Shown: positions 47,494 to 64,000 of the stretch, one piece after another
How positions within the stretch are numbered: position 1 is the stretch's first letter
Layout: the number at the start of each line of letters is the position of its first letter
NCBI GenBank assembly: GCA_964615375.1
Contig: CAZTOW010000012.1
Coordinates: 1-64,000, forward strand
Reading direction: 5' to 3'
Length of the DNA stretch: 64,000 nucleotides
From: an uncultured Enterobacterales bacterium
GTDB lineage: Bacteria; Myxococcota_A; UBA796; CAZKWG01
Translations under genes and position numbers: made by a program
The notes under the pieces: generated by a model
What the model saw: the letters and a program-made list of their open reading frames with translations, nothing else
What the model was told of the DNA's origin: nothing
Databases searched by the model: none

Positions 47494-48348
47494 ATGGACC
47501 TCTTCCGCACCCCCACCCGTCACGCCGGCGGCGAGGCCGACCTCGTCGTCCTCGACCCGGATCATCCCGGCTTCCGCGATCCCGCCTACCGGGCGCGCCG
47601 CGACCAGATCGCGCGCCTGGCCCTGGCGCACCAGACCGGCCAGCGCGTGGTGTCGGTGGACTACACGGCCGAGGAGCACGAGACCTGGCGCACGGTCTGG
47701 GGTCGGCTGGCGCCGCTGCACCGCGCGCGGGTGTGCCGGGAGATCCTGGAGCTCCAGGAGATCCTGCCGCTGCCGCACGAGGCCATCCCCCAGCTCGAGG
47801 ACCTGAACCCCATCGTGGACGCCGTGGCCGGCTTCCGGCTGGAGCCCGTGGCGGGCCTGGTCAGCCCGCGCACCTTCCTGCGCTACCTCGGGCGGCGGGT
47901 CTTCCTCAGCACCCAGTACATCCGCCACCCCAGCCGGCCCTTCTATACGCCCGAGCCCGACGTCGTCCACGAGCTGGTGGGCCACGTCGCGACCCTGGTC
48001 CACCCCGGGATCGCCGAGCTCAACCGCGTGCTGGGCGAGGCGGCGGAGGTGGCCGACGAGGCGGAGATGGCGCGGCTCGACCGGGTGTACTGGTACACGC
48101 TCGAGTTCGGCGTGGTCCTCCAGGACGGTGAGCCCCGGGCGTTCGGCGCCGGGCTGCTGTCGAGCGTGGGCGAGCTCGCCGAGTATGACCGGCACGCCAC
48201 CCTCACCGGCTGGGACGTGGACCGCATGGCGGCCACCCCCTTCGACCCGACGCGCTACCAGGACGTGCTCTTCGTCGCGCCCTCGTTCACGCGCCTGCTG
48301 TGCGACACGGCGGCCTGGGTGCGGACCGGGCGCTGGCGGGCGGCTTAG
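47494..48348 (+). CDS. phhA: phenylalanine 4-monooxygenase (aromatic amino acid hydroxylase)
   Basis: Iron-ligand motif PDVVHELVGHVATL ... E; biopterin hydroxylase family, monomeric bacterial size. Confidence 0.85.
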   Translation: MDLFRTPTRHAGGEADLVVLDPDHPGFRDPAYRARRDQIARLALAHQTGQRVVSVDYTAEEHETWRTVWGRLAPLHRARVCREILELQEILPLPHEAIPQLEDLNPIVDAVAGFRLEPVAGLVSPRTFLRYLGRRVFLSTQYIRHPSRPFYTPEPDVVHELVGHVATLVHPGIAELNRVLGEAAEVADEAEMARLDRVYWYTLEFGVVLQDGEPRAFGAGLLSSVGELAEYDRHATLTGWDVDRMAATPFDPTRYQDVLFVAPSFTRLLCDTAAWVRTGRWRAA

Positions 48349-51300
48349 CGCGCCTCCGACGTGTCCGCCCCGTTCGCGCACTGGGCGTCGTCGGCGTCCA
48401 CCTTCCCGTCCAGATCGTTGTCACGCCCGTCGTTGCACTGGGTGGAGCCGTAGCCGCCGGTCTCCTCCTCGACGTAGATCGAGGTGCAGACAGGGTCGTC
48501 GAGGTCAACCCAGCCGTCGTCGTCATTGTCGATCCCGTCGTTGCACTCCGTCTCTGGATCCGTCTCGTCATCATCGGTCGCGCTGATGCAGCCGAGATCG
48601 GCGGAGTCGGTGAGCCCGTCGCCGTCGTCGTCCTCGCCGTCGTTGCAGGCGGTCAGGCCGAAGATGGCGCCGTCCTCGGCGTTGTCGTCCGCGTCGGTAC
48701 AGTCGGGGTCGTCGAGGTCGTACCAGCCGTCGCCGTCGTTGTCGCTGTCGTCCTCACACTGCGGGATGTGCGTCTCATCGGTGTCGAAGGCGCTCTCGCA
48801 GCCCGGATCGGAGGCGTCGGCGTCGCCGTCGCTGTCGTCGTCCACCTCGTTGTTGCAGGTGAAGCCGTCCTCGTAGCCCAGCTCCTCGCCGGCCCAGGCG
48901 CAGTCCGGGTCGTCGTCGTCTGTCCAGCCGTCGCCGTCGCCGTCGATCCCGTCGGCGCAGTCCGCGCCTTCGACGTCCTCGGACTCCGAGCTGTCCAGCG
49001 CGCTCTCGCAGTCGGGGTCGTCCGCGTCGGCGTCGCCGTCGCCGTCGTCGTCCTCGCCGTCGTTGCACACGGTGTCGCCCGTGCCGCGCTCGGCCACGCC
49101 GCTGACGCAGTCGGGGTCGTCCACGTCGATCCATCCATCACGATCATTGTCGCTGCTGTCAGCGCAGCCGGGGCCTGTGTTGGTCTCCAACGGATCGAGC
49201 GCGCTGGTGCAGCCGTAGTCCGTCGCGTCGATGACGCCGTCGCTGTCGTCGTCCTCCTGGTTGTTGCAGGGCAGGTCGCCGTAGCCCACCTCGCTGTCGC
49301 CCACGAAGCAGTCGGGATCCTCCTCGTCGGTCCAGCCGTCGCCGTCCTCGTCGGCGCCGTCCTCGCAGGTCCCGGTGGTGGGGCCCTCCACCGTGTCGCG
49401 CGCCCTGGCGCAGTCGGGGTCCTCGGCGTCGATGAGACCGTCGTCGTCGTCGTCCTCGCCGTCGTTGCAGGCGGTGGCGCCGTAGCCCTCCTCCGTGTCT
49501 CCGCCGTCGCAGTCGGGGTCCGCCGCGTCGGTCCAGCCGTCGCCGTCCTCGTCCTCGCCGTCCGAGCAGTCCACGGAGGCGGCCTCCTCCTGCGCGTCCC
49601 AGCCGTCGGCGCAGTCCTCGTCGTCGGCGTCGGTGTAGCCGTCGCCGTCGCCGTCGTCCCCGTCGTTGCAGCCGAGGGTGGAGAGGCCGATCTCGTCGTC
49701 GTAGAGCGTGCAGTCGGGGTCCGCGAGGTCCGACCAGCCGTCGGCGTCGTCGTCGCGGCCGTTGGCGCAGGGGCCCGGGTCCGGGGCCTCGTCGTCGTCC
49801 CAGGCGGCGCCGCAGTCGGGGTCGTCGCCGTCGATGCTGTCGTCACCGTCGTCATCGACGCCGTTGCTGCAGGCGAAGTCGCTGGTGCCCGACTCGGCGT
49901 CGCCGCTCAGGCAGTCCAGGTCGTCGGTGTCGATGTAGCCGTCGCCGTCGTCGTCCGCGCCGTCCGCGCAGCTCTCGGCGTCGGCGTCCTCGACCGTGTC
50001 GAAGGCGTTGGCGCAGCCCGGGTCCGCGCCGTCCAGGCGCAGGTTGCCGTCGTCGTCCAGCCCGTTGTTGCAGGCGATGGAGCCGTAGCCGAGCTCGGCG
50101 TCGCCGTCTGCGCAGTCGGGATCCTCGGCGTCCACCCAGCCGTCCAGGTCGTTGTCCGAGCCGTCGATGCAGCCGTCCCCGCCCGCGCCGACCTCTACGT
50201 CGCCGGACGCGCAGTCGGGGTCGTCCGCGTCGGTGAGCCCGTCCTCGTCGTCGTCTACGCCGTTCTCGCACTCGGTGGTGGCGGTGGGCTCGTCGTCGGC
50301 GCCGTCGGCGCAGTCGGTGTCGGCGCTGTCGATGGCCCCGTCGCGGTCGTTGTCGAGCCCGTCGTTGCACCCGGCGTCGGAGAGGCCGAGCTCGGCGTCC
50401 CCGCTGGTCGAGCAGTCCGGGTCCTCGTCGTCGATCCAGCCGTCGGCGTCGTTGTCCTCGCCGTCCCCGCAGGGCTCGCTCTCGTCGTCGTCGCTGGCGT
50501 CCAGGCAGCCCGCGTCCTCGCCGTCGATGAGCCCGTCGTCGTCGTCGTCCTCGCCGTCGTTGCAGGCGGTGGCGCCGTAGCCCGCCTCGGGCCCGCCGCC
50601 GTCGCAGTCAGGGTCGGCGGCGTCGGTCCAGCCGTCGCCGTCGTCGTCCAGATCGTCGGCGCAGCTCCCGGACTCGTCGTCGTCCCACGCGTCGTCACAG
50701 TCGGCGTCGAAGGCGTCGATGTCGCCGTCGCCGTCGTCGTCCTCGCCGTCGCTGCACTCGGAGACGGCCTCGAACGCGCCCTCGTCGTCGTCCAGATCGT
50801 CGTCGCAGCCCGGGTCGTCCAGGTCCACCCAGCCGTCGCCGTCGCCGTCGAGCCCGTCCTCGCAGGCGTTGGCCTCGCTGTCGTCGAGCGCGTCCGCACA
50901 CGAGGGGTCGAGCCCGTCGGCGAGCCCGTCGCCGTCGTCGTCCTCGCCGTTGTTGCAGGCCAGATCGGAGTAGCCCGCCTCGGCGTCGCCGGAGGTGCAG
51001 TCGGGATCGTCGGCGTCCGTCCAGCCGTCCTCGTCGCCGTCGAGCCCGTCCTCGCAGTCGGGCTGGGCCTCGTCGTCGTCCAGCGCGTCCTCGCACTCGG
51101 GGTCGGCGCTGTCGATGGAGCCGTCACCGTCGTTGTCGGCGAGGTCATTGCAGTCGGTCCCGCCCGCCCCCAGCTCCTCGTCGCCGAACTGGCAGTCGGG
51201 ATCTTCCAGGTCCACCCAGCCGTCGCCGTCGCCGTCCTCACCGTCCGCGCAGGGATCGGCCTCGGTGGCCTCGTCGTCGTCCGCCGCGTGGTCGCAGTCG

Positions 51301-51956
51301 GGGTCCTCGCTGTCGATGGCCAGATCGCCGTCGTCGTCCTCGCCGTTGTTGCAGGCGTGGTCGCCGTAGCCCTTCTCCTCGGTGCCCGCCGCGCAGTCGG
51401 GGTCCCGCCCGTCGGTCCAGCCGTCCCCGTCGTTGTCTTCGCCGTCCTCGCAGCCGGAGACCTCCACGATTCCCGTGAGCGTGACGGACTCGCGCTGGAT
51501 CTGCTCGCCCACGAACTCGAGCGGGCCGAGCACGTCCGAGCTGCTCACCAGCGCGCCCCCGCTGAGGCCGAGGGCCCACACGTCGAAGGGGTCGTTGCCC
51601 TCTCCGGGCTGGAGCTCGATGTCGGCCAGCCAGTCGCCCTCGGTGAGCGGGCTCACGCTCACCACCAGCTCCAGGTTGGCGTCGCCGGTGTCCGCGTCGC
51701 TCAGGCTGGCGTCGTCGCCGTCGTAATCCTCGGGCTGGAGCGCGATGCCGTGCTCGTCGGAGAAGGGCAGCGACGGGTCCACCACCAGGCGCACCTCGTC
51801 GAGCTGCCCGCGCATGGCCTCGACGTCGTCGGCGACCACGCGGATCTGGATGGCCGTCCGCGGCGGCTCGCCGCAGGCCGTGAGCAGGAGCAGCAGGACA
51901 AGGGTCCTCAGGGGAGCACCACGCACGGGAGCACCACGCACGGGAGCACTACTCAT
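48345..51956 (-). CDS. giant hyper-acidic repeat lipoprotein (~30 tandem Cys-bracketed DxDxDG TSP3/MopE-like modules)
   Basis: Lipobox LLLLLTAC. About 15 alternating pairs of CxDGxDxDxDGWxDxxDPDC and ACN(D/N)GxDDDxDGxxDxxDxxC modules; roughly 35% Asp+Glu. Start ATGA-coupled to the PEGA gene. Converges stop-to-stop with phhA. Confidence 0.8.
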   Translation of the reverse strand: MSSAPVRGAPVRGAPLRTLVLLLLLTACGEPPRTAIQIRVVADDVEAMRGQLDEVRLVVDPSLPFSDEHGIALQPEDYDGDDASLSDADTGDANLELVVSVSPLTEGDWLADIELQPGEGNDPFDVWALGLSGGALVSSSDVLGPLEFVGEQIQRESVTLTGIVEVSGCEDGEDNDGDGWTDGRDPDCAAGTEEKGYGDHACNNGEDDDGDLAIDSEDPDCDHAADDDEATEADPCADGEDGDGDGWVDLEDPDCQFGDEELGAGGTDCNDLADNDGDGSIDSADPECEDALDDDEAQPDCEDGLDGDEDGWTDADDPDCTSGDAEAGYSDLACNNGEDDDGDGLADGLDPSCADALDDSEANACEDGLDGDGDGWVDLDDPGCDDDLDDDEGAFEAVSECSDGEDDDGDGDIDAFDADCDDAWDDDESGSCADDLDDDGDGWTDAADPDCDGGGPEAGYGATACNDGEDDDDDGLIDGEDAGCLDASDDDESEPCGDGEDNDADGWIDDEDPDCSTSGDAELGLSDAGCNDGLDNDRDGAIDSADTDCADGADDEPTATTECENGVDDDEDGLTDADDPDCASGDVEVGAGGDGCIDGSDNDLDGWVDAEDPDCADGDAELGYGSIACNNGLDDDGNLRLDGADPGCANAFDTVEDADAESCADGADDDGDGYIDTDDLDCLSGDAESGTSDFACSNGVDDDGDDSIDGDDPDCGAAWDDDEAPDPGPCANGRDDDADGWSDLADPDCTLYDDEIGLSTLGCNDGDDGDGDGYTDADDEDCADGWDAQEEAASVDCSDGEDEDGDGWTDAADPDCDGGDTEEGYGATACNDGEDDDDDGLIDAEDPDCARARDTVEGPTTGTCEDGADEDGDGWTDEEDPDCFVGDSEVGYGDLPCNNQEDDDSDGVIDATDYGCTSALDPLETNTGPGCADSSDNDRDGWIDVDDPDCVSGVAERGTGDTVCNDGEDDDGDGDADADDPDCESALDSSESEDVEGADCADGIDGDGDGWTDDDDPDCAWAGEELGYEDGFTCNNEVDDDSDGDADASDPGCESAFDTDETHIPQCEDDSDNDGDGWYDLDDPDCTDADDNAEDGAIFGLTACNDGEDDDGDGLTDSADLGCISATDDDETDPETECNDGIDNDDDGWVDLDDPVCTSIYVEEETGGYGSTQCNDGRDNDLDGKVDADDAQCANGADTSEAR

Positions 51957-53071
51957 GGCAGCACCACGACGGTCTCGCTCTCCGGGACCGGCTCCGGGGT
52001 CAGCGCGTTGGCCAGCAGCACGCCCCCGGCGGCGGCGGCTCCGGCGCCCAGGGTGACGCCGCCCCAGAAGGTCCAGCGCGCCAGCAGGGGGCGCTCGCGC
52101 AGGAGCTTGCCGGTGCCGCTCTCGCCCTCGCGGACCAGCTCGGCCCGGTAGAGCAGCTTGCCCTTGGGCGGGACCTCCAGCGTCTGCTCGAGGGCCTGGT
52201 ATCCCGGGGCGCTCACGCTGAGGCGGTAGCGCCCGCGCTCCAGCTCGGCGACGCGCACCACCTCACCCTCGCCGAGGAGGTGGCCCTCCAGGCGCACCGC
52301 GCCCTGCGGATGGCCGGTCTCGATGACCAGCCCCGCGCCCTCCGGGGGCAGGGAGACGGTGACCTCACCCTTCGATCCATTTGAATTGTCGAAGCGTCGA
52401 AAGACCGTCGCGTACTCGGCGAGCTCCAGGCGCACGACGTGAGCGCCGGGCGGCACGCCCTCTACCGAGAGCGGCGTGTCTCCGATGCTCTTGTCGTCCA
52501 GCCAGACGCGCGCCGGGGCGGGGGTGGAGCTCACCTGAAGCAGGCCCGCCGTGCTCTTCAGCCGCACGTTGAAGAGCAGGTTCTTCCCCTTGACGAAGGT
52601 GAAGCTGCCCTCTTCGGGCTCGTGGCCGGGAGCGCTGATGGTGTAGCGGTACTCCCCCGGGCTCAGGTCGCGCAGGCGCACCGGGGTGGGGACGGGATCG
52701 GCGCCGTTGAGCACCAGCTTCGCCCCGCCCGGCTGGACCAGGAACTCCACCGTGCCCTGGCCGGCGACGAGCTGGGCCGCGACCTCCAGGGTGGTGCCGG
52801 GGCTGACCTCGACCCGGCGCACGAAGGGGTCGTGCCCGTCGGCGGCCACGCGGATCAGGTGCATCCCGGCCGACAGGTAGCGCACGACCGGGGCCTCGCC
52901 CACCACCTCGTTGTCCACGTAGACGGTGGCGCCAGCCACGGGGCTGGTGATGCGGACGATGCCGGTGGGGGCGGCCTGCTCCTGCGCCTGGGCAGGGGGC
53001 GCGAGGCCGATCAGGGCGCCGAGGCCGAGGGCCAGGACCAGGAGCAGGGGAGCGGGGCGCTGCGCACGCAT
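51953..53071 (-). CDS. PEGA-domain protein (signal peptide, three to four PEGA repeats, C-terminal TM anchor)
   Basis: Signal peptide ending AQAQE. Repeated P(E/G)GA-type motifs (SPGEYRY, PPGAHVVR, ERGRYRL). C-terminal WTFWGGVTLGAGAAAAGGVLL TM helix. Confidence 0.75.
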   Translation of the reverse strand: MRAQRPAPLLLVLALGLGALIGLAPPAQAQEQAAPTGIVRITSPVAGATVYVDNEVVGEAPVVRYLSAGMHLIRVAADGHDPFVRRVEVSPGTTLEVAAQLVAGQGTVEFLVQPGGAKLVLNGADPVPTPVRLRDLSPGEYRYTISAPGHEPEEGSFTFVKGKNLLFNVRLKSTAGLLQVSSTPAPARVWLDDKSIGDTPLSVEGVPPGAHVVRLELAEYATVFRRFDNSNGSKGEVTVSLPPEGAGLVIETGHPQGAVRLEGHLLGEGEVVRVAELERGRYRLSVSAPGYQALEQTLEVPPKGKLLYRAELVREGESGTGKLLRERPLLARWTFWGGVTLGAGAAAAGGVLLANALTPEPVPESETVVVLP

Positions 53072-53111: not shown

Positions 53112-54929
<1,818 letters not shown>

Positions 54930-55880: not shown

Positions 55881-56050
55881 GGGGACCCTCAGGCAGGACC
55901 ATAACACCCGATGACCGGCGGAGGCGGGGCGGGGGAGGGCTGCGATAGCTCCAGGAGGGCACATGGTCGCTGCTCGGCGCGGTCCTGGCCTCCGTCGGGC
56001 GCTCCCGGCGTTCGAGGCGAGCTCTCCGCACCTGAACACACTCCCGGTAG

Positions 56051-56070
56051 CCGGACATTTTCTGTCCGCC
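56051..56070. promoter_or_regulatory. hairpin motif CGGACA-TTTTC-TGTCCG upstream of the Rpn-family gene
   Basis: Same stem as the 34690/34721 hairpins; 41 bp upstream of the 56112 ATG. Confidence 0.45.
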
Positions 56071-56111
56071 TCATTTTGCCTGCCCGCGAGCCCAGGTCTA
56101 AGGGGGCGGGC

Positions 56112-57050
56112 ATGATGAAGCATCGAATCAACCCTCTCATCGACTGCGTGTTCAAGCGGCTGATGGGCACGGCCGAGAACCTCGACCTGCTCGCCAGCTT
56201 CCTGAACGCGCTCCTCGCTCCCCCCAACCCCATCGTCTCGCTGACGCTGGTGGACACCCACGTCAAGAAACAGACCCGCAAGGATGACACCACCATCGTG
56301 GACGTGCTGGCGACGGACAGCGCCGGCTACGTCTACCAGGTCGAGGTGCAGCTCACCCGCCACACCTGGCTGTTGGAGCGGATGCTCTACTGCTGGGCCG
56401 ACATCTACCAGGAGCAGATCCAGGCGGGCCAGGACTTCGACGTGCTGCGGCCGGTGATCTCCATCTGGATCCTGGATCGCCCCGTGTTCCGCGGTCACGG
56501 ACCCTGGCACCGACGCTTCCAGGTGCGCGACGACCACGAGGGGGCCCTGCTCAGCCCGCACCTCGACATCCACACCGTCGAGCTCAACAAGTGGCGCCCC
56601 CCGAGCGAGGCCCCCCTTGTCGCGCTGGACCGTTGGATGTACTTCTTCAAAGAGGCGCGCGCGTGGACCTCCCTGCCCGAGGTCCTCGACAGCCCGGAGA
56701 TGAGGAAGGCCATGAGCGTGATCGAGCGCTGGTCGGAGAAGGAGAGCGACTACCGCGCCTACCGCAGGCGGCTCCACGCGCTGCGCGTGAGCCGGATCCA
56801 GGAGAAGGAGCGGGTCCAGCTCCGGGAGGAGAAGAGCCAGCTTCTGGAGGAGACTGGCCTGCTTCGGGGCGAGAAGGCCGCCCTCCAAGGCGAGAAGGCC
56901 GCCCTCCAAGGCGAGAAGGCCGCCCTCCAAGGCGAGAAGGCCGCCCTCCAAGGCGAGAAGGCCGCCCTCCAAGGCGAAAACCAGCAGCTCCATACCGAGC
57001 TCGAGGCCCTCCGGGCCGAGCTCGCGCGCCTGCGCGCCGCGGGGGCCTGA
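56112..57050 (+). CDS. Rpn-family recombination-promoting nuclease / putative transposase (PD-(D/E)XK, YhgA-like) with C-terminal coiled-coil heptad repeats
   Basis: N-terminal LIDCVFKRLMG ... LLASFLNALL typical of the YhgA/Rpn family. C-terminal (GEKAALQ)x5 then ELEALRAELARLRAAGA. Confidence 0.8.
   Translation: MMKHRINPLIDCVFKRLMGTAENLDLLASFLNALLAPPNPIVSLTLVDTHVKKQTRKDDTTIVDVLATDSAGYVYQVEVQLTRHTWLLERMLYCWADIYQEQIQAGQDFDVLRPVISIWILDRPVFRGHGPWHRRFQVRDDHEGALLSPHLDIHTVELNKWRPPSEAPLVALDRWMYFFKEARAWTSLPEVLDSPEMRKAMSVIERWSEKESDYRAYRRRLHALRVSRIQEKERVQLREEKSQLLEETGLLRGEKAALQGEKAALQGEKAALQGEKAALQGEKAALQGENQQLHTELEALRAELARLRAAGA
56869..56973 (+). repeat. five perfect tandem copies of a 21-bp unit GGCGAGAAGGCCGCCCTCCAA
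   Basis: Seen directly in the sequence, inside the Rpn gene 3' region; in-frame heptad coiled-coil. Confidence 0.9.
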
Positions 57051-58854: not shown

Positions 58855-60336
58855 ATGGACACCCGAGGGCCGGCGCACGTCGCGGACGCCTGGGCGAGCG
58901 CGCTCGTCCGCGCGGAGCAGCCCTACCTGATCGACGCAGCAGACGGCAGCGTATTCACCGTGGGCGAGCTGGATCTGCTCAGCCGCCGCGCCGTGAGCGC
59001 CCTGAGCGCCCTCGGCTTCGGGCCGGGAGACCGGGCCATCCTGGTCGCGCGGCCGGAGGTGGAGACGCTGCTCACCGTGCTGGGCGCGCTGCGCCTCGGG
59101 GTCACGCTGGCCCTGCTCCCGCCTCAGGCGCCCCCGACGCACGCGGAGGAGCTCGCCCGCCTCTGGGAGGGCGCGCGCACGCTGGAGCTGGACGCCGCGC
59201 TGGGGGAGGCGCTCGCCCGGCTCGAGCCCGCTCCGCCCCCCGCCCCCGTGGACCCCGACCAGGACGCCGTCGTCCTCTTCTCCTCGGGCAGCACGGGCCC
59301 CGCCCGCGGCGTGCGCCTCTCCTGGCGCGCCCTGGCCGGCGGGCTGGGGCGGCTGGCGCAGATCGAGGCCGAGAGCGAGGCCGCGCGGGTCGCCACCGGG
59401 CTCCTGCGCGCCGGCGCCCGCGAGGGCTGCGCCGCCCTGCCCCACACGGTCACCGGGTACCGCCTGCTGCTGGCGCCCCTCTATCGCGGGACGACCACCG
59501 TTTTGCTGCCGCCCGGGGCCGGCGCGGCGGAGCTCCTCGACCTCGCCGCGACCCACGCCCTGGATCTCCTACACGCCGGGCCCGGCTTCGCCCGCGCCTG
59601 CCTGCGCGCGCCCGAGCGCCACGCCGCCCTGGTGGGCCCCTCGCTGCGGGCGGTCGCCCTGGGCGGAGGCGCCATCGAGGCCGGGGATCGGCAGCGGCTC
59701 GCCGACGCGCTGGGCGTGGCCGTGATCCACACCTACGGACTCACCGAGTCCGCCGGGCTGGTGGCCGCCGCCATCGCCACCCCCGGCGGCCTCGCCCCCG
59801 TAGGGATGGGGAGGCCGATGGTGCCCGTGCGCGTGCTCGACGAGGCGGGCCGCGAGACGACGGGGGAGGGGAGGATCGAGGTGGCGCCCCCCACGGCGGC
59901 CTCGGGCTACCTGGGCGGCGGCGCGCTGTTCTCCGACGCGGCGCGGCGCTGGGTGCGCACGGGGGATCTGGGCTGGCTGGACGCGGCGGGGCGCCTGCAC
60001 GTCCGCGGACGGGCCGCGCGCCTGCTCACGCTGCCGTCTGGCGAGAAGGTGCAGCTCGAGGACGTCGAGCAGGTCATCCGCGCCGCGCTGGGCCTGGAGG
60101 TCGTCGTCGTCGCCGTGGACGGCCTGGAGCGGGAGCCCGTGCTGGGGGCCCTGGTGGTGGGGCCGCCGCTGAGCCCGGCCTGGGAGCGCCGCGCGCGCCT
60201 GACCCTCACCGAGCGGCTCTGCGCCCGGGAGCTGCCGCGCCTCTGGAGGGCCTGCGAGGCGCTGCCGCTCACGCCCACGGGGAAGGTGGACCTGCGCGCC
60301 GCCTCAGCCCTGCTGGCCGAGCCCGCCCTGCCCTGA
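58855..60336 (+). CDS. AMP-dependent synthetase/ligase (acyl-CoA synthetase-like)
   Basis: AMP-binding motifs FSSGSTGPARGV, YGLTES, TGDLG ... R, and C-terminal GKVD lysine. Confidence 0.8.
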   Translation: MDTRGPAHVADAWASALVRAEQPYLIDAADGSVFTVGELDLLSRRAVSALSALGFGPGDRAILVARPEVETLLTVLGALRLGVTLALLPPQAPPTHAEELARLWEGARTLELDAALGEALARLEPAPPPAPVDPDQDAVVLFSSGSTGPARGVRLSWRALAGGLGRLAQIEAESEAARVATGLLRAGAREGCAALPHTVTGYRLLLAPLYRGTTTVLLPPGAGAAELLDLAATHALDLLHAGPGFARACLRAPERHAALVGPSLRAVALGGGAIEAGDRQRLADALGVAVIHTYGLTESAGLVAAAIATPGGLAPVGMGRPMVPVRVLDEAGRETTGEGRIEVAPPTAASGYLGGGALFSDAARRWVRTGDLGWLDAAGRLHVRGRAARLLTLPSGEKVQLEDVEQVIRAALGLEVVVVAVDGLEREPVLGALVVGPPLSPAWERRARLTLTERLCARELPRLWRACEALPLTPTGKVDLRAASALLAEPALP

Positions 60337-61068
60337 GCGCTCTGGCGGTCGAGGAGGCCGATCCCAGGTGTGGACCCACTGATCCGAGGGCGCGAAGCCG
60401 GCGCGAGCCAGCGCGGGGCCTCCGCCCGAGGGCGCCCCCAGGGCCAGCACGAGCTCCAGCCCGGCCCGCCGCGCCAGGACCAGCCGCGCCTCCAGCAGCG
60501 CCCGATGAACGCCCTGTCTGCGCCAGCGGGGCGCCGTGACCGCCCCCCAGAGGAGCCCGATCCCGTGCCCGCCGATCACCTGGAGGGCGCCGACCCCCCG
60601 CACCTCGCCCTCGCGCTCCTCCAGGACGAGGTGGTGCGCGCTCCCCACCAGGAGCCCCCAGGGGAGGCCCGGATCCAGCGCCTCGGGCAGCCCGCGCAGG
60701 CGCAGCGCGGCCGCGCACCAGCCCCGCACCTCGCCGGCCGTCCGGGCCAGCCGCACCTCCGCCCTCGCCTCGGGCGCGGGTCTCCCCCGCAGATCCAGGC
60801 TCCAGAGCTCCACCGGGTCGCGCGGGTGATAGCCCCGCGCCTCGAGCAGCGGCCCCAGCCCGTCCAGGGCTCGCGTGACGCTCACGCGCGACCAGACGCC
60901 CGCGTGCTCCCGCGACACGAGGTCCAGGAAGCCCGGGTCCGCCACCTCCGGGCGGGCCGCGTTGAGCTGCGCGAGCGGGATCGGGTGGCTCGCGCACCAG
61001 CCCTCGGGCGTCCGGAGCGCCCGCGTCCCCGGGGCCAGCTCTTTCGGGTCGGTGACCGCGGCCAGCAT
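60304..61068 (-). CDS. GNAT family N-acetyltransferase
   Basis: Acetyl-CoA binding motif RWRRQGVHRALLEA (R/Q-x-x-G-x-G/A) in a GNAT fold-sized protein. 8 nt downstream of the MBOAT stop. Confidence 0.65.
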   Translation of the reverse strand: MLAAVTDPKELAPGTRALRTPEGWCASHPIPLAQLNAARPEVADPGFLDLVSREHAGVWSRVSVTRALDGLGPLLEARGYHPRDPVELWSLDLRGRPAPEARAEVRLARTAGEVRGWCAAALRLRGLPEALDPGLPWGLLVGSAHHLVLEEREGEVRGVGALQVIGGHGIGLLWGAVTAPRWRRQGVHRALLEARLVLARRAGLELVLALGAPSGGGPALARAGFAPSDQWVHTWDRPPRPPERSGQGGLGQQG

Positions 61069-61076
61069 CCGGGCGA

Positions 61077-62138
61077 TCAACGCTGTACCCAGGCGAGCCA
61101 GCGCGGCCAGGCCCGCAGGATCCAGAAGCCCGCCATCACCCAGCTCATCGTGAGAAGCCAGCCCAGCGGGCGCCAGCGCGGCGGGAGCTCCCGCGGGAGC
61201 AGCCGGGACCACAGCGCGAGGCCGAGCGCGTGCCAGATCCCCCAGAGCAGGTAGCCCAGGCTCAGCTCGTGCCAGAGCGCAAAGGTCGACATCGCCGCCA
61301 CCGTCGCCAGCGTCGCGCGCCGGGTGCGGGCCAGGATCGGCAGGTACACATAGGTCCGGCACCACTCCGAGACCGTGATGTGCCAGGAGCGCCAGAAGCC
61401 CGGCAGGCTGGTCTGGAGGAAGGGCGCGTCGAAGTTCTCGGGGACGCGCTGCCCGCCCAGCCGCCCGAGCCCGATGGCCACGCCGCTGAGCCCGGAGAAG
61501 GTGAGGTAGAGGCTCAGCGCGCCCAGCGTCGTCCAGAACAGCTGCTCGGGGAAGTAGCCGGCCCAGGCCGGAAGGACGGTCCCCACCAGCCAGAAGGAGA
61601 GCACGACCACCCGCACGTAGCCGTAGAGGATGCGCCGCAGCCCGAGGGCGGCGTCCTCTTCGTCCCAACGCCGGCGCCGCTCCCAGCGCAGCCAGTCGTC
61701 GAAGCGCTGCACCGGCCCCACCAGCACCGTGGGGAAGTAGAGCAGCCAGCCGATCACGTCCTGGGGGCCGTGCTCGGGCAGGTTCTCGCGCGCGGACTCG
61801 ATCCAGTAGTGGGCGAGGCGCATGATGAAGAAGCCGAAGCCGGCCGGGGCCAGCAGGGCGCCTGCGCTCAGCTCCCGCACCAGCACGCGCTCCCCCAGGA
61901 AGAGGGCCGCCAGCCCCAGCAGCCCGAGCCAGAACAGGCGCCGCCCCGGGCGCCGCCCCAGCAGCCAGGCGCCGAGCCCCAGCAGCACCGCGACCAGGGC
62001 GGCCTCGCCGTCCCACCAGCTCACGAAGCCCAGCGAGAGCAGGTCGCGGGCGACGGGCCAGCGGCGCCCCTCCAGCAGCCGCGCCGCCAGGACGAAGCCG
62101 AGCGCGAACAGCAGGAAGGTGGAGGTGACGTAGGGCAT
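61077..62138 (-). CDS. MBOAT family membrane-bound O-acyltransferase (DltB/AlgI-like)
   Basis: Multi-TM protein; conserved His context WRSWHITVSEW and C-terminal FALWHE typical of MBOAT. ATGA-coupled to the upstream gene. Confidence 0.8.
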   Translation of the reverse strand: MPYVTSTFLLFALGFVLAARLLEGRRWPVARDLLSLGFVSWWDGEAALVAVLLGLGAWLLGRRPGRRLFWLGLLGLAALFLGERVLVRELSAGALLAPAGFGFFIMRLAHYWIESARENLPEHGPQDVIGWLLYFPTVLVGPVQRFDDWLRWERRRRWDEEDAALGLRRILYGYVRVVVLSFWLVGTVLPAWAGYFPEQLFWTTLGALSLYLTFSGLSGVAIGLGRLGGQRVPENFDAPFLQTSLPGFWRSWHITVSEWCRTYVYLPILARTRRATLATVAAMSTFALWHELSLGYLLWGIWHALGLALWSRLLPRELPPRWRPLGWLLTMSWVMAGFWILRAWPRWLAWVQR

Positions 62139-62860
62139 CAGGGCTCCGCCAGCTCCTGACCGAGCCAGCGGCGGAAGGTAAACGCCCCCTCGGCGCTGAA
62201 GTGGAGCCCGTCCAGGTAGAGCGGGTCCGGCCAGCTCTCGTCCTCGGCGAGCACCTCGAGGTCGAGCGCGCGCAGGCGATCGTGCAGTGCGCGGCGCTCG
62301 GCCCACCAGCTCGCCCCCAGGCGCCCGGCCATGGTCCTGCCCATCGGCACCTCCAGCACGACCCGACGCGCCCACCACAGGCGTGAGAGCAGCTGGAGCC
62401 CGGCCTCCAGATCGGGGCCGGAGCGCTCGAAGGCCAGCAGGCGCCCCACGGGGTTGTTCTCCCGGCGCTTGGGCCCCAGCGGGAAGAGCAGGTCGATCTG
62501 CACCACCACCACGCTCGGGTGGTAGGCGACCAGCCGCCACAGGCCCTGCTCCAGCGTCGTGGCCACCAGCTCGGGGCCGAAGACCAGGTGGGTCGGGCCG
62601 TCGATGCCCGCCGCGCTGCCCACCTGGTCCGTCAGCCGGCGCTCCTGCATGGCGAAGCCGACGCGGGAATTGCCGAGGATGAGCAGGGCGTCGCCACCGC
62701 TGCGCGCCGGGGTGGTGTCGAGGGTGCTCAGCGTGGCGTCTGTGGTGGACGACGCCACGTCCCAGCTCCAGCCGATCTCACGCCCCACCTCCAGGACCAG
62801 GAGCGCGACCAGGGCCGCGACGATCCGCCAGGGCAGGAGCGGGCTCCAGGCCTCAGCCAT
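62138..62860 (-). CDS. membrane-anchored hypothetical protein in DltD/AlgJ-equivalent position
   Basis: N-terminal TM helix WRIVAALVALLVL; lies between the ligase-ACP gene and the MBOAT gene; start overlaps the ligase-ACP stop by 8 nt. Confidence 0.55.
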   Translation of the reverse strand: MAEAWSPLLPWRIVAALVALLVLEVGREIGWSWDVASSTTDATLSTLDTTPARSGGDALLILGNSRVGFAMQERRLTDQVGSAAGIDGPTHLVFGPELVATTLEQGLWRLVAYHPSVVVVQIDLLFPLGPKRRENNPVGRLLAFERSGPDLEAGLQLLSRLWWARRVVLEVPMGRTMAGRLGASWWAERRALHDRLRALDLEVLAEDESWPDPLYLDGLHFSAEGAFTFRRWLGQELAEP

Positions 62861-64000
62861 GGGCGCGCTCCAGCAGGGCCACCGCGTCGGCCAGCGAGCG
62901 CAGGCGCAGGAGGTCGCGGCCCAGGATGCGGACCTCGAAGCTGCGCTCCAGCGCGTCCACCAGATCCAGGTGCCCGAGCGAGTCCCAGCCGGGGAGCTCG
63001 CCGATGCGCGCGGAGAGGGTGAGCGTGGCCCGGTTCGCCCCGAAGACGCGGGCCGCCAGGTCCAGCACGCGCTCCTCCAGCGGATCCTCGGGGCGGGCCT
63101 GGGGCTTGCCGGTCTCGCCGCGGCGCAGGTGATCGACCAGGCGCCAGCGGCGGGGGATCTTGTGCTCGGAGAGGCGCTCGCGCAGGAAGCTCGCCAGCTC
63201 GGCCTCGCTCACGCCCTCGGCCACCACCTCGGCCGCCACGCGCTCGCCCCAGACCGGGTCGGGCTCGCCGCGGACCTGGGCGTCGCGGACGGCGGGGTGC
63301 TCCAGCAGCGCGCGCTCGACCTCGCCGGGCTCGACCTTCAAGCCGCCCACGGAGAGCATGGACTTCAGGCGCCCGTGTACGCGGACCAGGCCGTCGGGCT
63401 CGATCGTGGCGAGGTCGCCGGTGGGGTAGTAACCCTGGCGGAGGGCGCGCCCGGGGTCGGGGGGCGCGCGGGTGACGCTGGGGCCGCGGATCTCCAGCTC
63501 GCCCGGCTCGCCCACGGGCAGCGGGCTCCCCTCCGGGCTCACGACGCGGATCTCGCAGTCGCGCGGGCGGCCCACGGTCCCGATCCGGCGGGTGGCGGGA
63601 TCGGGGCCGGCGAAGAGGAGGTTGCCGGTCTCGGTGAGCCCGTAGACGTTCACCACGGGGCGCCCGGTGGTCGCCTCGACCTGGCGCCAGAGCGCGTCGG
63701 GCAGGGGCGCGGCGGTGGAGATGAAGAAACGGAAGCGTCGCGCGTCGAAGAGCTCACGGAGGTCCTCGCCCGCGCGCAGCAGCATGGAGAGCAGCGCGGG
63801 GGTGAGCACGAGGTGGGTGACGCGCTCGCGCCACACGCTGTCCAGGACCTCGCTCAGGTGCTGGAGGACCGGGCCGCGCGTGCGGACCAGCGCGCAGCCG
63901 ACGTGCTCCGCCACCAGCAGGCCCATCACGAGCCCGTCGATGTGGTGCAGGGGCAGCAGGTTCAGGAGGCGGCTCTGCGCGTCGAGCTCGAGGGCCTGGG
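62853..64000 (-). CDS. DltA-like AMP-ligase fused to a C-terminal acyl/peptidyl carrier protein domain (5' end beyond window)
   Basis: AMP-binding C-terminal half (YGLTETG, TGDLA, GKPQ) followed by a carrier domain (ARIGELPGWDSLGHLDLV). The reading frame stays open to the window end (LPLHHIDGLVMG). Confidence 0.75.
   Translation of the reverse strand, partial: QALELDAQSRLLNLLPLHHIDGLVMGLLVAEHVGCALVRTRGPVLQHLSEVLDSVWRERVTHLVLTPALLSMLLRAGEDLRELFDARRFRFFISTAAPLPDALWRQVEATTGRPVVNVYGLTETGNLLFAGPDPATRRIGTVGRPRDCEIRVVSPEGSPLPVGEPGELEIRGPSVTRAPPDPGRALRQGYYPTGDLATIEPDGLVRVHGRLKSMLSVGGLKVEPGEVERALLEHPAVRDAQVRGEPDPVWGERVAAEVVAEGVSEAELASFLRERLSEHKIPRRWRLVDHLRRGETGKPQARPEDPLEERVLDLAARVFGANRATLTLSARIGELPGWDSLGHLDLVDALERSFEVRILGRDLLRLRSLADAVALLERAHG

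Follow-up and report, generated by a model that had tools for sequence, protein, structure and literature searches.

A Dlt-like MBOAT-SGNH gene cassette with two acyl-CoA-ligase-type enzymes: a candidate carrier-dependent relay for envelope acylation in Gram-negative lineages

What does a gene cluster that resembles the Dlt system do in a lineage without teichoic acids? This question is raised by the end of a 64,000-nucleotide stretch of DNA from an uncultured bacterium (contig CAZTOW010000012.1, positions 1 to 64,000, assembly GCA_964615375.1; GTDB lineage Myxococcota_A), which we refer to as the window. Between positions 60304 and 64000 its minus strand carries four genes in the same direction, encoding a ligase fused to a carrier domain (Lig2), an SGNH-fold protein, a membrane-bound O-acyltransferase (MBOAT) as well as a GNAT-family acyltransferase. 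An earlier sequence-only reading had taken them for a Dlt-like acylation cluster. Our analysis supports a relay of this kind and revises its likely chemistry. We consider it probable that the locus encodes a carrier-dependent, Dlt-type MBOAT-SGNH relay, which esterifies a periplasmic or surface molecule with an acyl group other than D-alanine.

The DNA has a GC content of about 75%, and numerous spurious open reading frames (ORFs) overlap the genes of the cluster. In the frames of the four genes the GC content at third codon positions (GC3) lies at 92-97%, compared to 58-86% in two competing ORFs. Consecutive genes are joined by an 8-nucleotide overlap, by a 1-nucleotide TGATG overlap and, at the third junction, by either a TTGA overlap or a 9-nucleotide gap; the Lig2, SGNH and MBOAT genes are coupled through stop/start overlaps. 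Codon composition, junctions and Pfam matches bear out that these are four co-directional, overlapping or nearly overlapping genes, as the sequence-only reading had described them. The reading frame of Lig2 is uninterrupted up to the window edge at position 64000, where the cluster had been noted to run off. Exact look-up of the 240-amino-acid SGNH protein retrieved a 14-kb contig (L001) that is 100% identical to the window over 2281 nucleotides and extends the sequence by 8860 nucleotides past position 64000, including the missing 517 nucleotides of Lig2. Upstream of Lig2 this contig carries, in the same direction, a 64-amino-acid ORF and genes for a 463-amino-acid lipoprotein and a 924-amino-acid outer-membrane barrel; divergent housekeeping genes (Exo_endo_phos, cobW and aconitase) follow farther upstream. 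No condensation, ketosynthase (KS) or acyltransferase (AT) domains, and no further modules of a non-ribosomal peptide synthetase (NRPS) or polyketide synthase (PKS), were found in the 8.9 kb beyond the window or in 14 kb inside it. Likewise, none of the condensation, KS, AT or module domains adjoins the adenylation-carrier didomain in three related loci (L004, L005 and L007). The cluster therefore stands alone and is not part of an assembly line, the outcome on which the sequence-only reading had staked its case beforehand.

To place the cluster in a wider context, we compared contigs with relatives of the SGNH protein, contigs with homologues of the MBOAT, and GTDB genomes and JGI metagenomes scanned with an MBOAT alignment; all loci were annotated with hidden Markov models built from the first of them. 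Five genes recur across about 40 loci: a stand-alone ligase (Lig1, about 500 amino acids), the ligase-carrier fusion Lig2 (about 555-600), the SGNH protein (240-300), the MBOAT (353-376) and a microprotein of 46-64 amino acids. They usually follow one another in the order Lig1-Lig2-SGNH-MBOAT-microprotein. Since the succession of ligase-carrier, SGNH and MBOAT genes is found in about 40 independent loci, this arrangement is not due to chance. Lig1 is present in every complete cassette, and it lies directly upstream of Lig2 and in the same direction in L003, L004, L005, L011, L013 and all Oxalobacteraceae loci. The window genome has the complete cassette in rearranged form: the microprotein gene stands before Lig2, the GNAT gene follows the MBOAT gene, and Lig1, on the plus strand, is convergent with the GNAT gene. 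Compared with those Lig1 genes of other loci that directly precede Lig2, it shows 42-44% identity. The four genes of the sequence-only reading are thus real, while two core genes had been overlooked, Lig1 inside the window and the microprotein gene on the minus strand just past its edge.

By MBOAT identity the loci fall into two branches. The close branch (50-74% identity to the window) comprises unlabelled metagenome contigs and metagenome-assembled genomes (MAGs) labelled Oligoflexia, Deltaproteobacteria and "uncultured Enterobacterales"; we suspect that the last of these labels is wrong. By label, the closest relatives are Oligoflexia, Deltaproteobacteria and Myxococcota MAGs. The distant branch (35-42% identity) includes many cultured Janthinobacterium, Duganella and Massilia genomes together with one Burkholderiales, one Myxococcota and one Proteobacteria MAG. 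Apart from a duplicate of L004, all cassettes contributed by the metagenome scan were of the Oxalobacteraceae type. The comparative genomics proposed earlier for Myxococcales reveals a conserved cassette that reaches from rare Myxococcota/Oligoflexia-type MAGs into the Oxalobacteraceae, and the gene set is kept between two very different lineages although MBOAT identity drops to 35-42%. No description of this cassette was found in the literature.

Other MBOAT clusters were encountered along the way. Loci of the Ruminococcus type (L034-L089) were set aside as a different system that lacks the ligases. An Omnitrophota MAG (L032, 7107-15631) encodes a GDSL protein with TPR repeats, an MBOAT, a free acyl carrier protein (ACP), an acyl-CoA dehydrogenase, two radical S-adenosylmethionine (SAM) enzymes, an AMP-ligase and an ORF ending in TTFLYQQF. 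A Kofleriaceae MAG (L080, 6181-11144) encodes an acyl-CoA dehydrogenase, an AMP-ligase, an MBOAT, an arginase-family protein and an ORF ending in MQFLYMMF. These two carrier-dependent MBOAT clusters, whose small ORFs end in DltX-like tails, suggest that Dlt-type relays with acyl groups tailored to them come in a wider, uncharacterised variety.

Both ligases of the cassette belong to the ANL superfamily, with an AMP-binding domain and the P-loop, YGxTE, TGD, hinge and catalytic Lys motifs. Lig2 matches the Pfam families AMP-binding (8e-35) and AMP-binding_C (6e-15), and its motifs TSG(T/S)T, LPxxHxDGLV, YGL(T/S)ETG, TGD, GRxK and GK are invariant in six orthologues. In Lig1, SGSTG, H198, YGLTE, TGD, GR and GK are kept in at least 95% of 24 sequences. 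Since the core motifs are kept in both families, both ligases appear catalytically competent. The sequence-only reading had called the fused ligase DltA-like, and on this point our results disagree. The nearest solved relatives of Lig2 are oxalate-, malonyl- and feruloyl-CoA ligases, MenE, FadD13 and aryl-acid ligases (1e-40 to 1e-31), and DltA is not among its best 60 relatives in the PDB. All solved relatives of Lig1 are weak (FadD13, 4CL, NRPS adenylation domains and DltA, 6e-18 to 3e-13), and its match to DltA (3e-13) covers only residues 240-482 in the C-terminal half. The best NCBIfam matches of the ligases are FadD-like CoA ligases, all far under their cut-offs, and no DltA model is among the 25 best matches listed for either enzyme. 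Amino-acid-activating domains, such as NRPS adenylation domains and DltA, carry F-D-x-S at core motif A4, where the Asp binds the alpha-amino group; acid:CoA ligases carry a His at the position of that Asp. The A4 motif of both cassette ligases reads LPxxH..G, not FDxS. In Lig2 the invariant LPLHHIDGL aligns with LPLFHVHGL of oxalate-CoA ligase, and the corresponding sequence of Lig1 is LPHTVTG. Judged by these motifs and relatives, both ligases are of the acyl-CoA-ligase type, not of the DltA type. Because both carry the His of acyl-CoA ligases, the transferred group is probably a carboxylic acid rather than D-alanine. Of the amino or acyl group proposed earlier, an acyl group is hence favoured and an amino-acyl group less likely.

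The carrier domain fused to Lig2 matches the Pfam family PP-binding weakly when the whole protein is scanned (1e-3), whereas the domain scanned alone reaches 23.5 bits against a cut-off of 20.8. In an alignment of the domain from ten loci spanning both branches, G, W, D, S and H of PGWDSLxH are invariant, and eight of the ten members match PP-binding. The serine singled out by the sequence-only reading as the DSL Ser of a carrier is Ser513, which is present in all ten. ACPs are the best PDB matches, and the profile of the domain aligns its WDSLSH with a solved member of this group (2lml, 1.7e-10).

The MBOAT is a member of its superfamily by Pfam (PF03062, 1.9e-22, 80.5 bits against a cut-off of 27). 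DltB (6bug) is its sole strong solved relative by sequence (phmmer 5e-17), and DltB is also the best fold match of its AlphaFold2 model, built from the family alignment (predicted local distance difference test, pLDDT, of 89), with a TM-score of 0.81 and an E-value of 1e-13, ahead of HHAT, PORCN and LPCAT3 and far ahead of DGAT and ACAT. In the alignment with DltB, His290 is paired with the His of FWHG (residue 336 in the printed numbering) and His253 with the His of WHMS, and both are invariant in 25 family sequences. The protein is not a DltB equivalog, as the NCBIfam model LTA_dltB gives 103 bits against a cut-off of 375. With 353 amino acids it is shorter than AlgI-type matches (about 460-500), and its C-terminus ends in AWVQR, with no FxYxxF extension.

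The 240-amino-acid protein encoded between Lig2 and the MBOAT has an N-terminal helix, and its only Pfam match is a weak one to GDSL. Ser65 of a G-N/D-S motif, and Asp217 and His220 of a D-x-x-H motif, are invariant in 18 sequences. The transmembrane-anchored protein seen earlier in the position of DltD therefore appears to be an SGNH-fold protein with an invariant Ser/Asp/His set. It does not belong to the DltD family: it matches neither any NCBIfam model nor the DltD model of Pfam, and no PDB sequence was hit by the family profile. In our view it represents a new, small family, probably of the SGNH type, that would take the role of DltD without being its homologue in the ordinary sense. Members are scarce: a set of 5.8 billion proteins contained 5 relatives and a set of 1.84 billion representatives 48, and a search of GTDB genomes with one SGNH alignment (A1) found nothing.

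The 64-amino-acid ORF before Lig2 (GC3 0.97), just past the window edge, is the microprotein of this genome. A microprotein was found in every locus that reaches its position. Each consists of one hydrophobic helix and a short tail, and the last residues of the protein read F-x-Y-x-x-(M/V/I/L): FSYLGM here, and FAYLRM, FLYFGV, FAYLGV, FAYLDV, FRYGQL and FRYLDI in other loci. In the window genome its gene lies before Lig2 and not after the MBOAT, and this difference in position argues for a real, selected gene.

How could these proteins work together? In the Dlt system, DltB passes D-alanine from DltC to the invariant Tyr in the C-terminal FXYXXF of the microprotein DltX, and DltX hands it on to DltD, an SGNH protein, where the catalytic Ser receives it (PMC12148441). 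Among bacterial MBOAT-SGNH systems the dependence on a carrier and on a microprotein is stated to be unique to Dlt; others, such as PatAB, have the motif fused to the MBOAT, use an acyl-CoA donor and are stated to work without carrier or microprotein (PMC12148441). For the cassette, the identity of the domains, the conservation of the catalytic residues and the conserved set of coupled genes are observed; the scheme proposed below is an inference as regards each chemical step, the membrane topology, the acyl group and the acceptor. In the cytoplasm, Lig2 would adenylate a carboxylic acid, probably a small one, and bind it as a thioester to the phosphopantetheine arm of its own carrier at Ser513. 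The DltB-like MBOAT would, via His290, move the acyl group through the inner membrane to the Tyr in the C-terminal tail of the microprotein. The anchored SGNH protein would receive the acyl group on Ser65 of a putative Ser65/Asp217/His220 triad and esterify a hydroxyl of an envelope acceptor. Lig1 may act on this carrier in trans and charge it with a second acid. Alternatively, the acyl group may be composite, and Lig1 would activate its second carboxyl or building block. In the lineage of the window the GNAT, and possibly the neighbouring methyltransferase, may tailor the substrate.

This scheme follows Dlt (DltX-DltA-DltB-DltC-DltD, acting on the teichoic acids of Firmicutes) in its overall construction. 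Both combine a cytoplasmic adenylating enzyme with a phosphopantetheine carrier, a short MBOAT that is nearest to DltB and has the catalytic His but no fused C-terminal motif, a separate single-pass microprotein ending in F-x-Y-x-x-hydrophobic, and an SGNH-fold Ser/Asp/His partner anchored by an N-terminal helix. Even the gene order is shared in the window genome, where the microprotein precedes the ligase as dltX precedes dltA. There are also differences. Instead of DltA or an NRPS-type enzyme there are two adenylating enzymes of the acyl-CoA-ligase type, and the carrier is fused to one of them while DltC is free-standing. The SGNH protein, with 240 amino acids against about 390 in DltD, shares no sequence similarity with DltD, and the microprotein is missed by the Pfam model of DltX and ends its motif in M, V, I or L instead of F. 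The hosts belong to didermic-type lineages without teichoic acids, so that acceptor and acyl group should both differ from those of Dlt. We conclude that the cassette looks built to use a Dlt-type relay with different activating enzymes.

Two other groups of envelope-modifying systems invite comparison. Like the cassette, PatA/PatB, AlgI/AlgJ/AlgX and WssH-type systems occur in Gram-negative hosts and pair an MBOAT with an SGNH protein that acts on an extracytoplasmic polymer via an acyl-tyrosine in a motif of the FXYXXF type. These systems take acetyl-CoA directly, without carrier, ligase or microprotein, and bear the motif on two extra helices fused to the MBOAT (PMC12148441). With its short MBOAT, its motif on a separate protein and its carrier, the cassette is not one of them. 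The AlmE/AlmF/AlmG system of Vibrio cholerae modifies lipid A with glycine, combining a DltA-like ligase and a carrier protein with a target in the Gram-negative envelope. AlmG, however, is a member of the lipid A late acyltransferase family that works at the cytoplasmic face, and the system is not known to have an MBOAT, SGNH protein or microprotein.

Several alternatives were weighed against a relay for a non-D-alanine acyl group. A true D-alanylation system would account for the same set of parts, that is a ligase, a carrier, an MBOAT nearest to DltB, an SGNH protein and a microprotein with a Tyr motif, and dlt genes are known in some Gram-negatives (PMC5541007). We nevertheless regard D-alanylation as very unlikely. 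Neither ligase resembles DltA in its relatives or its NCBIfam matches, and, according to a motif assignment taken from established knowledge of ANL enzymes, both show a His at the position of the Asp with which amino-acid-activating domains bind the alpha-amino group. Moreover, the DltD models, the Pfam search with the microprotein and the low LTA_dltB score do not speak for Dlt proteins, and a canonical dlt operon has one ligase and a free-standing carrier. The type of the ligases would instead suit an acyl-CoA-dependent O-acylation as in AlgI or PatA, in which the ligases just make the acyl-CoA donor and the carrier is vestigial; Gram-negative MBOAT-SGNH pairs do normally use acyl-CoA (PMC12148441). 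A vestigial carrier is difficult to reconcile with a domain whose serine is invariant in all ten aligned loci of both branches. In addition, the MBOAT is shorter than the AlgI-type matches and lacks the two extra helices and the fused tail of this type, and the tail motif sits on a separate microprotein as in Dlt. This is the least probable of the explanations considered here.

Alternatively, the locus could be a small NRPS-like cluster for a lipid or secreted metabolite, in which the MBOAT esterifies a lipid or small alcohol in the manner of eukaryotic MBOATs, the SGNH protein is a thioesterase or lipase, and no envelope polymer is modified. Two adenylating enzymes with a carrier are typical of natural-product logic, accessories such as the GNAT and the methyltransferase-like protein suggest tailoring of a small molecule, and the related clusters L032 and L080 carry genes of the acyl-CoA-dehydrogenase family, accompanied in L032 by genes for radical SAM enzymes and a free ACP. 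On the other hand, a single-pass microprotein with an FxYxx tail and an anchored SGNH protein are hallmarks of polymer-acylating MBOAT-SGNH relays (PMC12148441). The fold of the MBOAT is nearest to DltB and not to HHAT, PORCN, LPCAT3 or, far behind, DGAT and ACAT. Furthermore, condensation, KS, AT, thioesterase and reductase genes are absent within about 9 kb on either side, and in Duganella sp. Leaf61 (L007) the cassette lies among the housekeeping genes proB, obg, rpmA and rplU. A metabolite cluster thus seems unlikely to us, even if it deserves more attention than the other two alternatives.

The proposed relay has weak points of its own, and the following observations count against it. DltX is assigned by Pfam to DUF3687 (PMC5541007). 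The microprotein has no Pfam match at E-values up to 0.1, so that membership of the DltX family is not detectable; its likeness to DltX therefore consists of motif and architecture, not of detectable homology, and the last residue of the motif is aliphatic, not Phe. In the SGNH protein the Ser of block I and the Asp-x-x-His of block V are present, while the Gly of block II and the Asn of block III are not recognisable; its structure model is moderately confident, with pLDDT below 50 near Asp217 and His220. The Dlt paradigm offers no role for a second ligase. The earlier suggestion to complete the ligase and read its adenylation domain yielded the full 554 amino acids and the LPLHHIDGL motif, but assigning a substrate from the solved relatives of Lig2 was rejected, since their ranking is too flat to name one (oxalate-CoA ligase at 1e-40, MenE and FadD13 at 1e-35). 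Finally, the flanks point to no acceptor, as neighbours differ in every lineage. This variation, together with the housekeeping setting in Leaf61, indicates that the acceptor is probably a general envelope component.

If the relay works as proposed, it would provide an ester-linked decoration of a Gram-negative envelope component not known before; comparable decorations affect charge, resistance to antimicrobial peptides, phage recognition and immune sensing. More tentatively, the cassette could represent a second class of carrier- and microprotein-dependent MBOAT-SGNH systems outside the Firmicutes, in which two ligases supply a non-amino-acid, possibly two-part acyl group for a Gram-negative envelope glycan and of which clusters of the L032/L080 type are further members. 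We consider this broader view possible, with the odds against it. The cassette would also offer a natural means to test the generality of the acyl-tyrosine shuttle and to learn what restricts the size of the acyl groups admitted by a DltB-type channel. Since it occurs in easily grown Janthinobacterium, Duganella and Massilia, the prediction is open to genetics and mass spectrometry.

The GNAT counted among the cluster genes by the sequence-only reading is present, yet it does not belong to the core. It is a superfamily member by its match to Acetyltransf_1 (residues 142-209; 24.5 bits, cut-off 20.7), and its GC3 is 0.925. L004/L090 (35% identity, 1e-18) and L013 have a homologue upstream of Lig1 and divergent from it, so that three of the four distinct close-branch lineages with known flanks have one. 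In the other cassette loci, among them all those of the Oxalobacteraceae type, none was detected; a search of the 5.8-billion-protein set returned only the query itself and a sequence search of the PDB was empty. The GNAT is hence a recurrent accessory, not a core gene, and we regard it as a lineage-specific enzyme that would tailor or supply the substrate. The 3' ends of the convergent GNAT and Lig1 genes overlap by 33 nucleotides (60304-60336), which leaves no room for a terminator between them.

A homologue of the methyltransferase gene next to Lig1 was not found beside the cassette in other loci; it is possible that this gene is a lineage-specific accessory of the putative system. Lig1 itself has a conserved N-terminal extension of about 470 amino acids in Janthinobacterium, Duganella, Massilia and two MAGs (L007 2430-5300, L009 2483-5299, L014-L031). 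This extension is covered by no Pfam family. It has a weak match to a Trm112-like zinc ribbon and, by eye, methyltransferase-like motifs, e.g., LILDTWGRTGW and PLPFGDSRFALVHGLDSLHRY. An equivalence between the extension and the window methyltransferase was considered and rejected, as BLAST gave no significant match and hhalign a probability of 3.5%.

The barrel and lipoprotein genes (L001 3903-8071, corresponding to window positions 64790-68958) lie directly upstream of the microprotein gene, with gaps of 2 and 16 nucleotides, and run in the same direction. The barrel is Oar-like, with a CarboxypepD_reg N-terminus, OMP_b-brl_4 and a weak Plug match; the lipoprotein is acidic and has a weak match to the PPC domain. 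In this genome only, both may form one operon with the cassette. As conserved partners they were rejected, being absent from every other locus, and we therefore treat them as local context only. The features of the window cluster and its direct neighbours are collected in the table.

Table. Positions of the cassette genes, their domains and residues, and adjacent genes in the window
Feature	Position	Strand	Remarks
Lig2::carrier, C-terminal 381 of 554 amino acids	62853..64000	-	ANL and carrier Pfam matches; start 517 nucleotides past the window, L001 8344
Carrier (ACP-like) domain of Lig2	62856..63110	-	PGWDSLxH; Ser513 at 62979-62981
SGNH-fold membrane-anchored protein, 240 amino acids	62138..62860	-	Ser65 at 62666-62668, Asp217 at 62210-62212, His220 at 62201-62203
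Short DltB-like MBOAT, 353 amino acids	61077..62138	-	His253 at 61380-61382, His290 at 61269-61271
GNAT-family acyltransferase, 254 amino acids	60304..61068	-	Acetyltransf_1; start coupled to MBOAT stop
Lig1, stand-alone ANL enzyme, 493 amino acids	58855..60336	+	Pfam AMP-binding 1.3e-34; orthologues in cassettes
Class I SAM methyltransferase, 281 amino acids	57933..58778	-	Methyltransf_11 1.8e-12; divergent from Lig1, 76-nucleotide gap

Besides Lig1 (a second AMP-ligase) and the methyltransferase, the flank inside the window encodes TtcA, a PDDEXK_2 protein, an ABC ATPase, SelB, a PEGA protein, a TetR regulator and phenylalanine hydroxylase. An Rfam scan of the window returned no rRNA and no other Rfam match. 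Two independent close-branch loci encode a large FG-GAP/Cu-binding MopE-like protein on the strand opposite to the cassette and 3-5 kb downstream of it (L004 14355-16481, L005 16325-17986), which may be a coincidence or a lineage trait. The PDDEXK_2 gene of the window (55911-57050, plus strand; 3.5e-44) belongs to a PD-(D/E)XK "transposase" family and encodes a coiled-coil tail with five exact GEKAALQ heptads, corresponding to a 21-nucleotide tandem repeat; with 64-68% GC this stretch lies below its surroundings. On the minus strand, positions 48345-53071 hold a 1203-amino-acid ORF without Pfam match, followed by a gene for a 372-amino-acid protein with four PEGA domains. This pair is adjoined by SelB (53112-54929), the presence of which implies that the organism uses selenocysteine.

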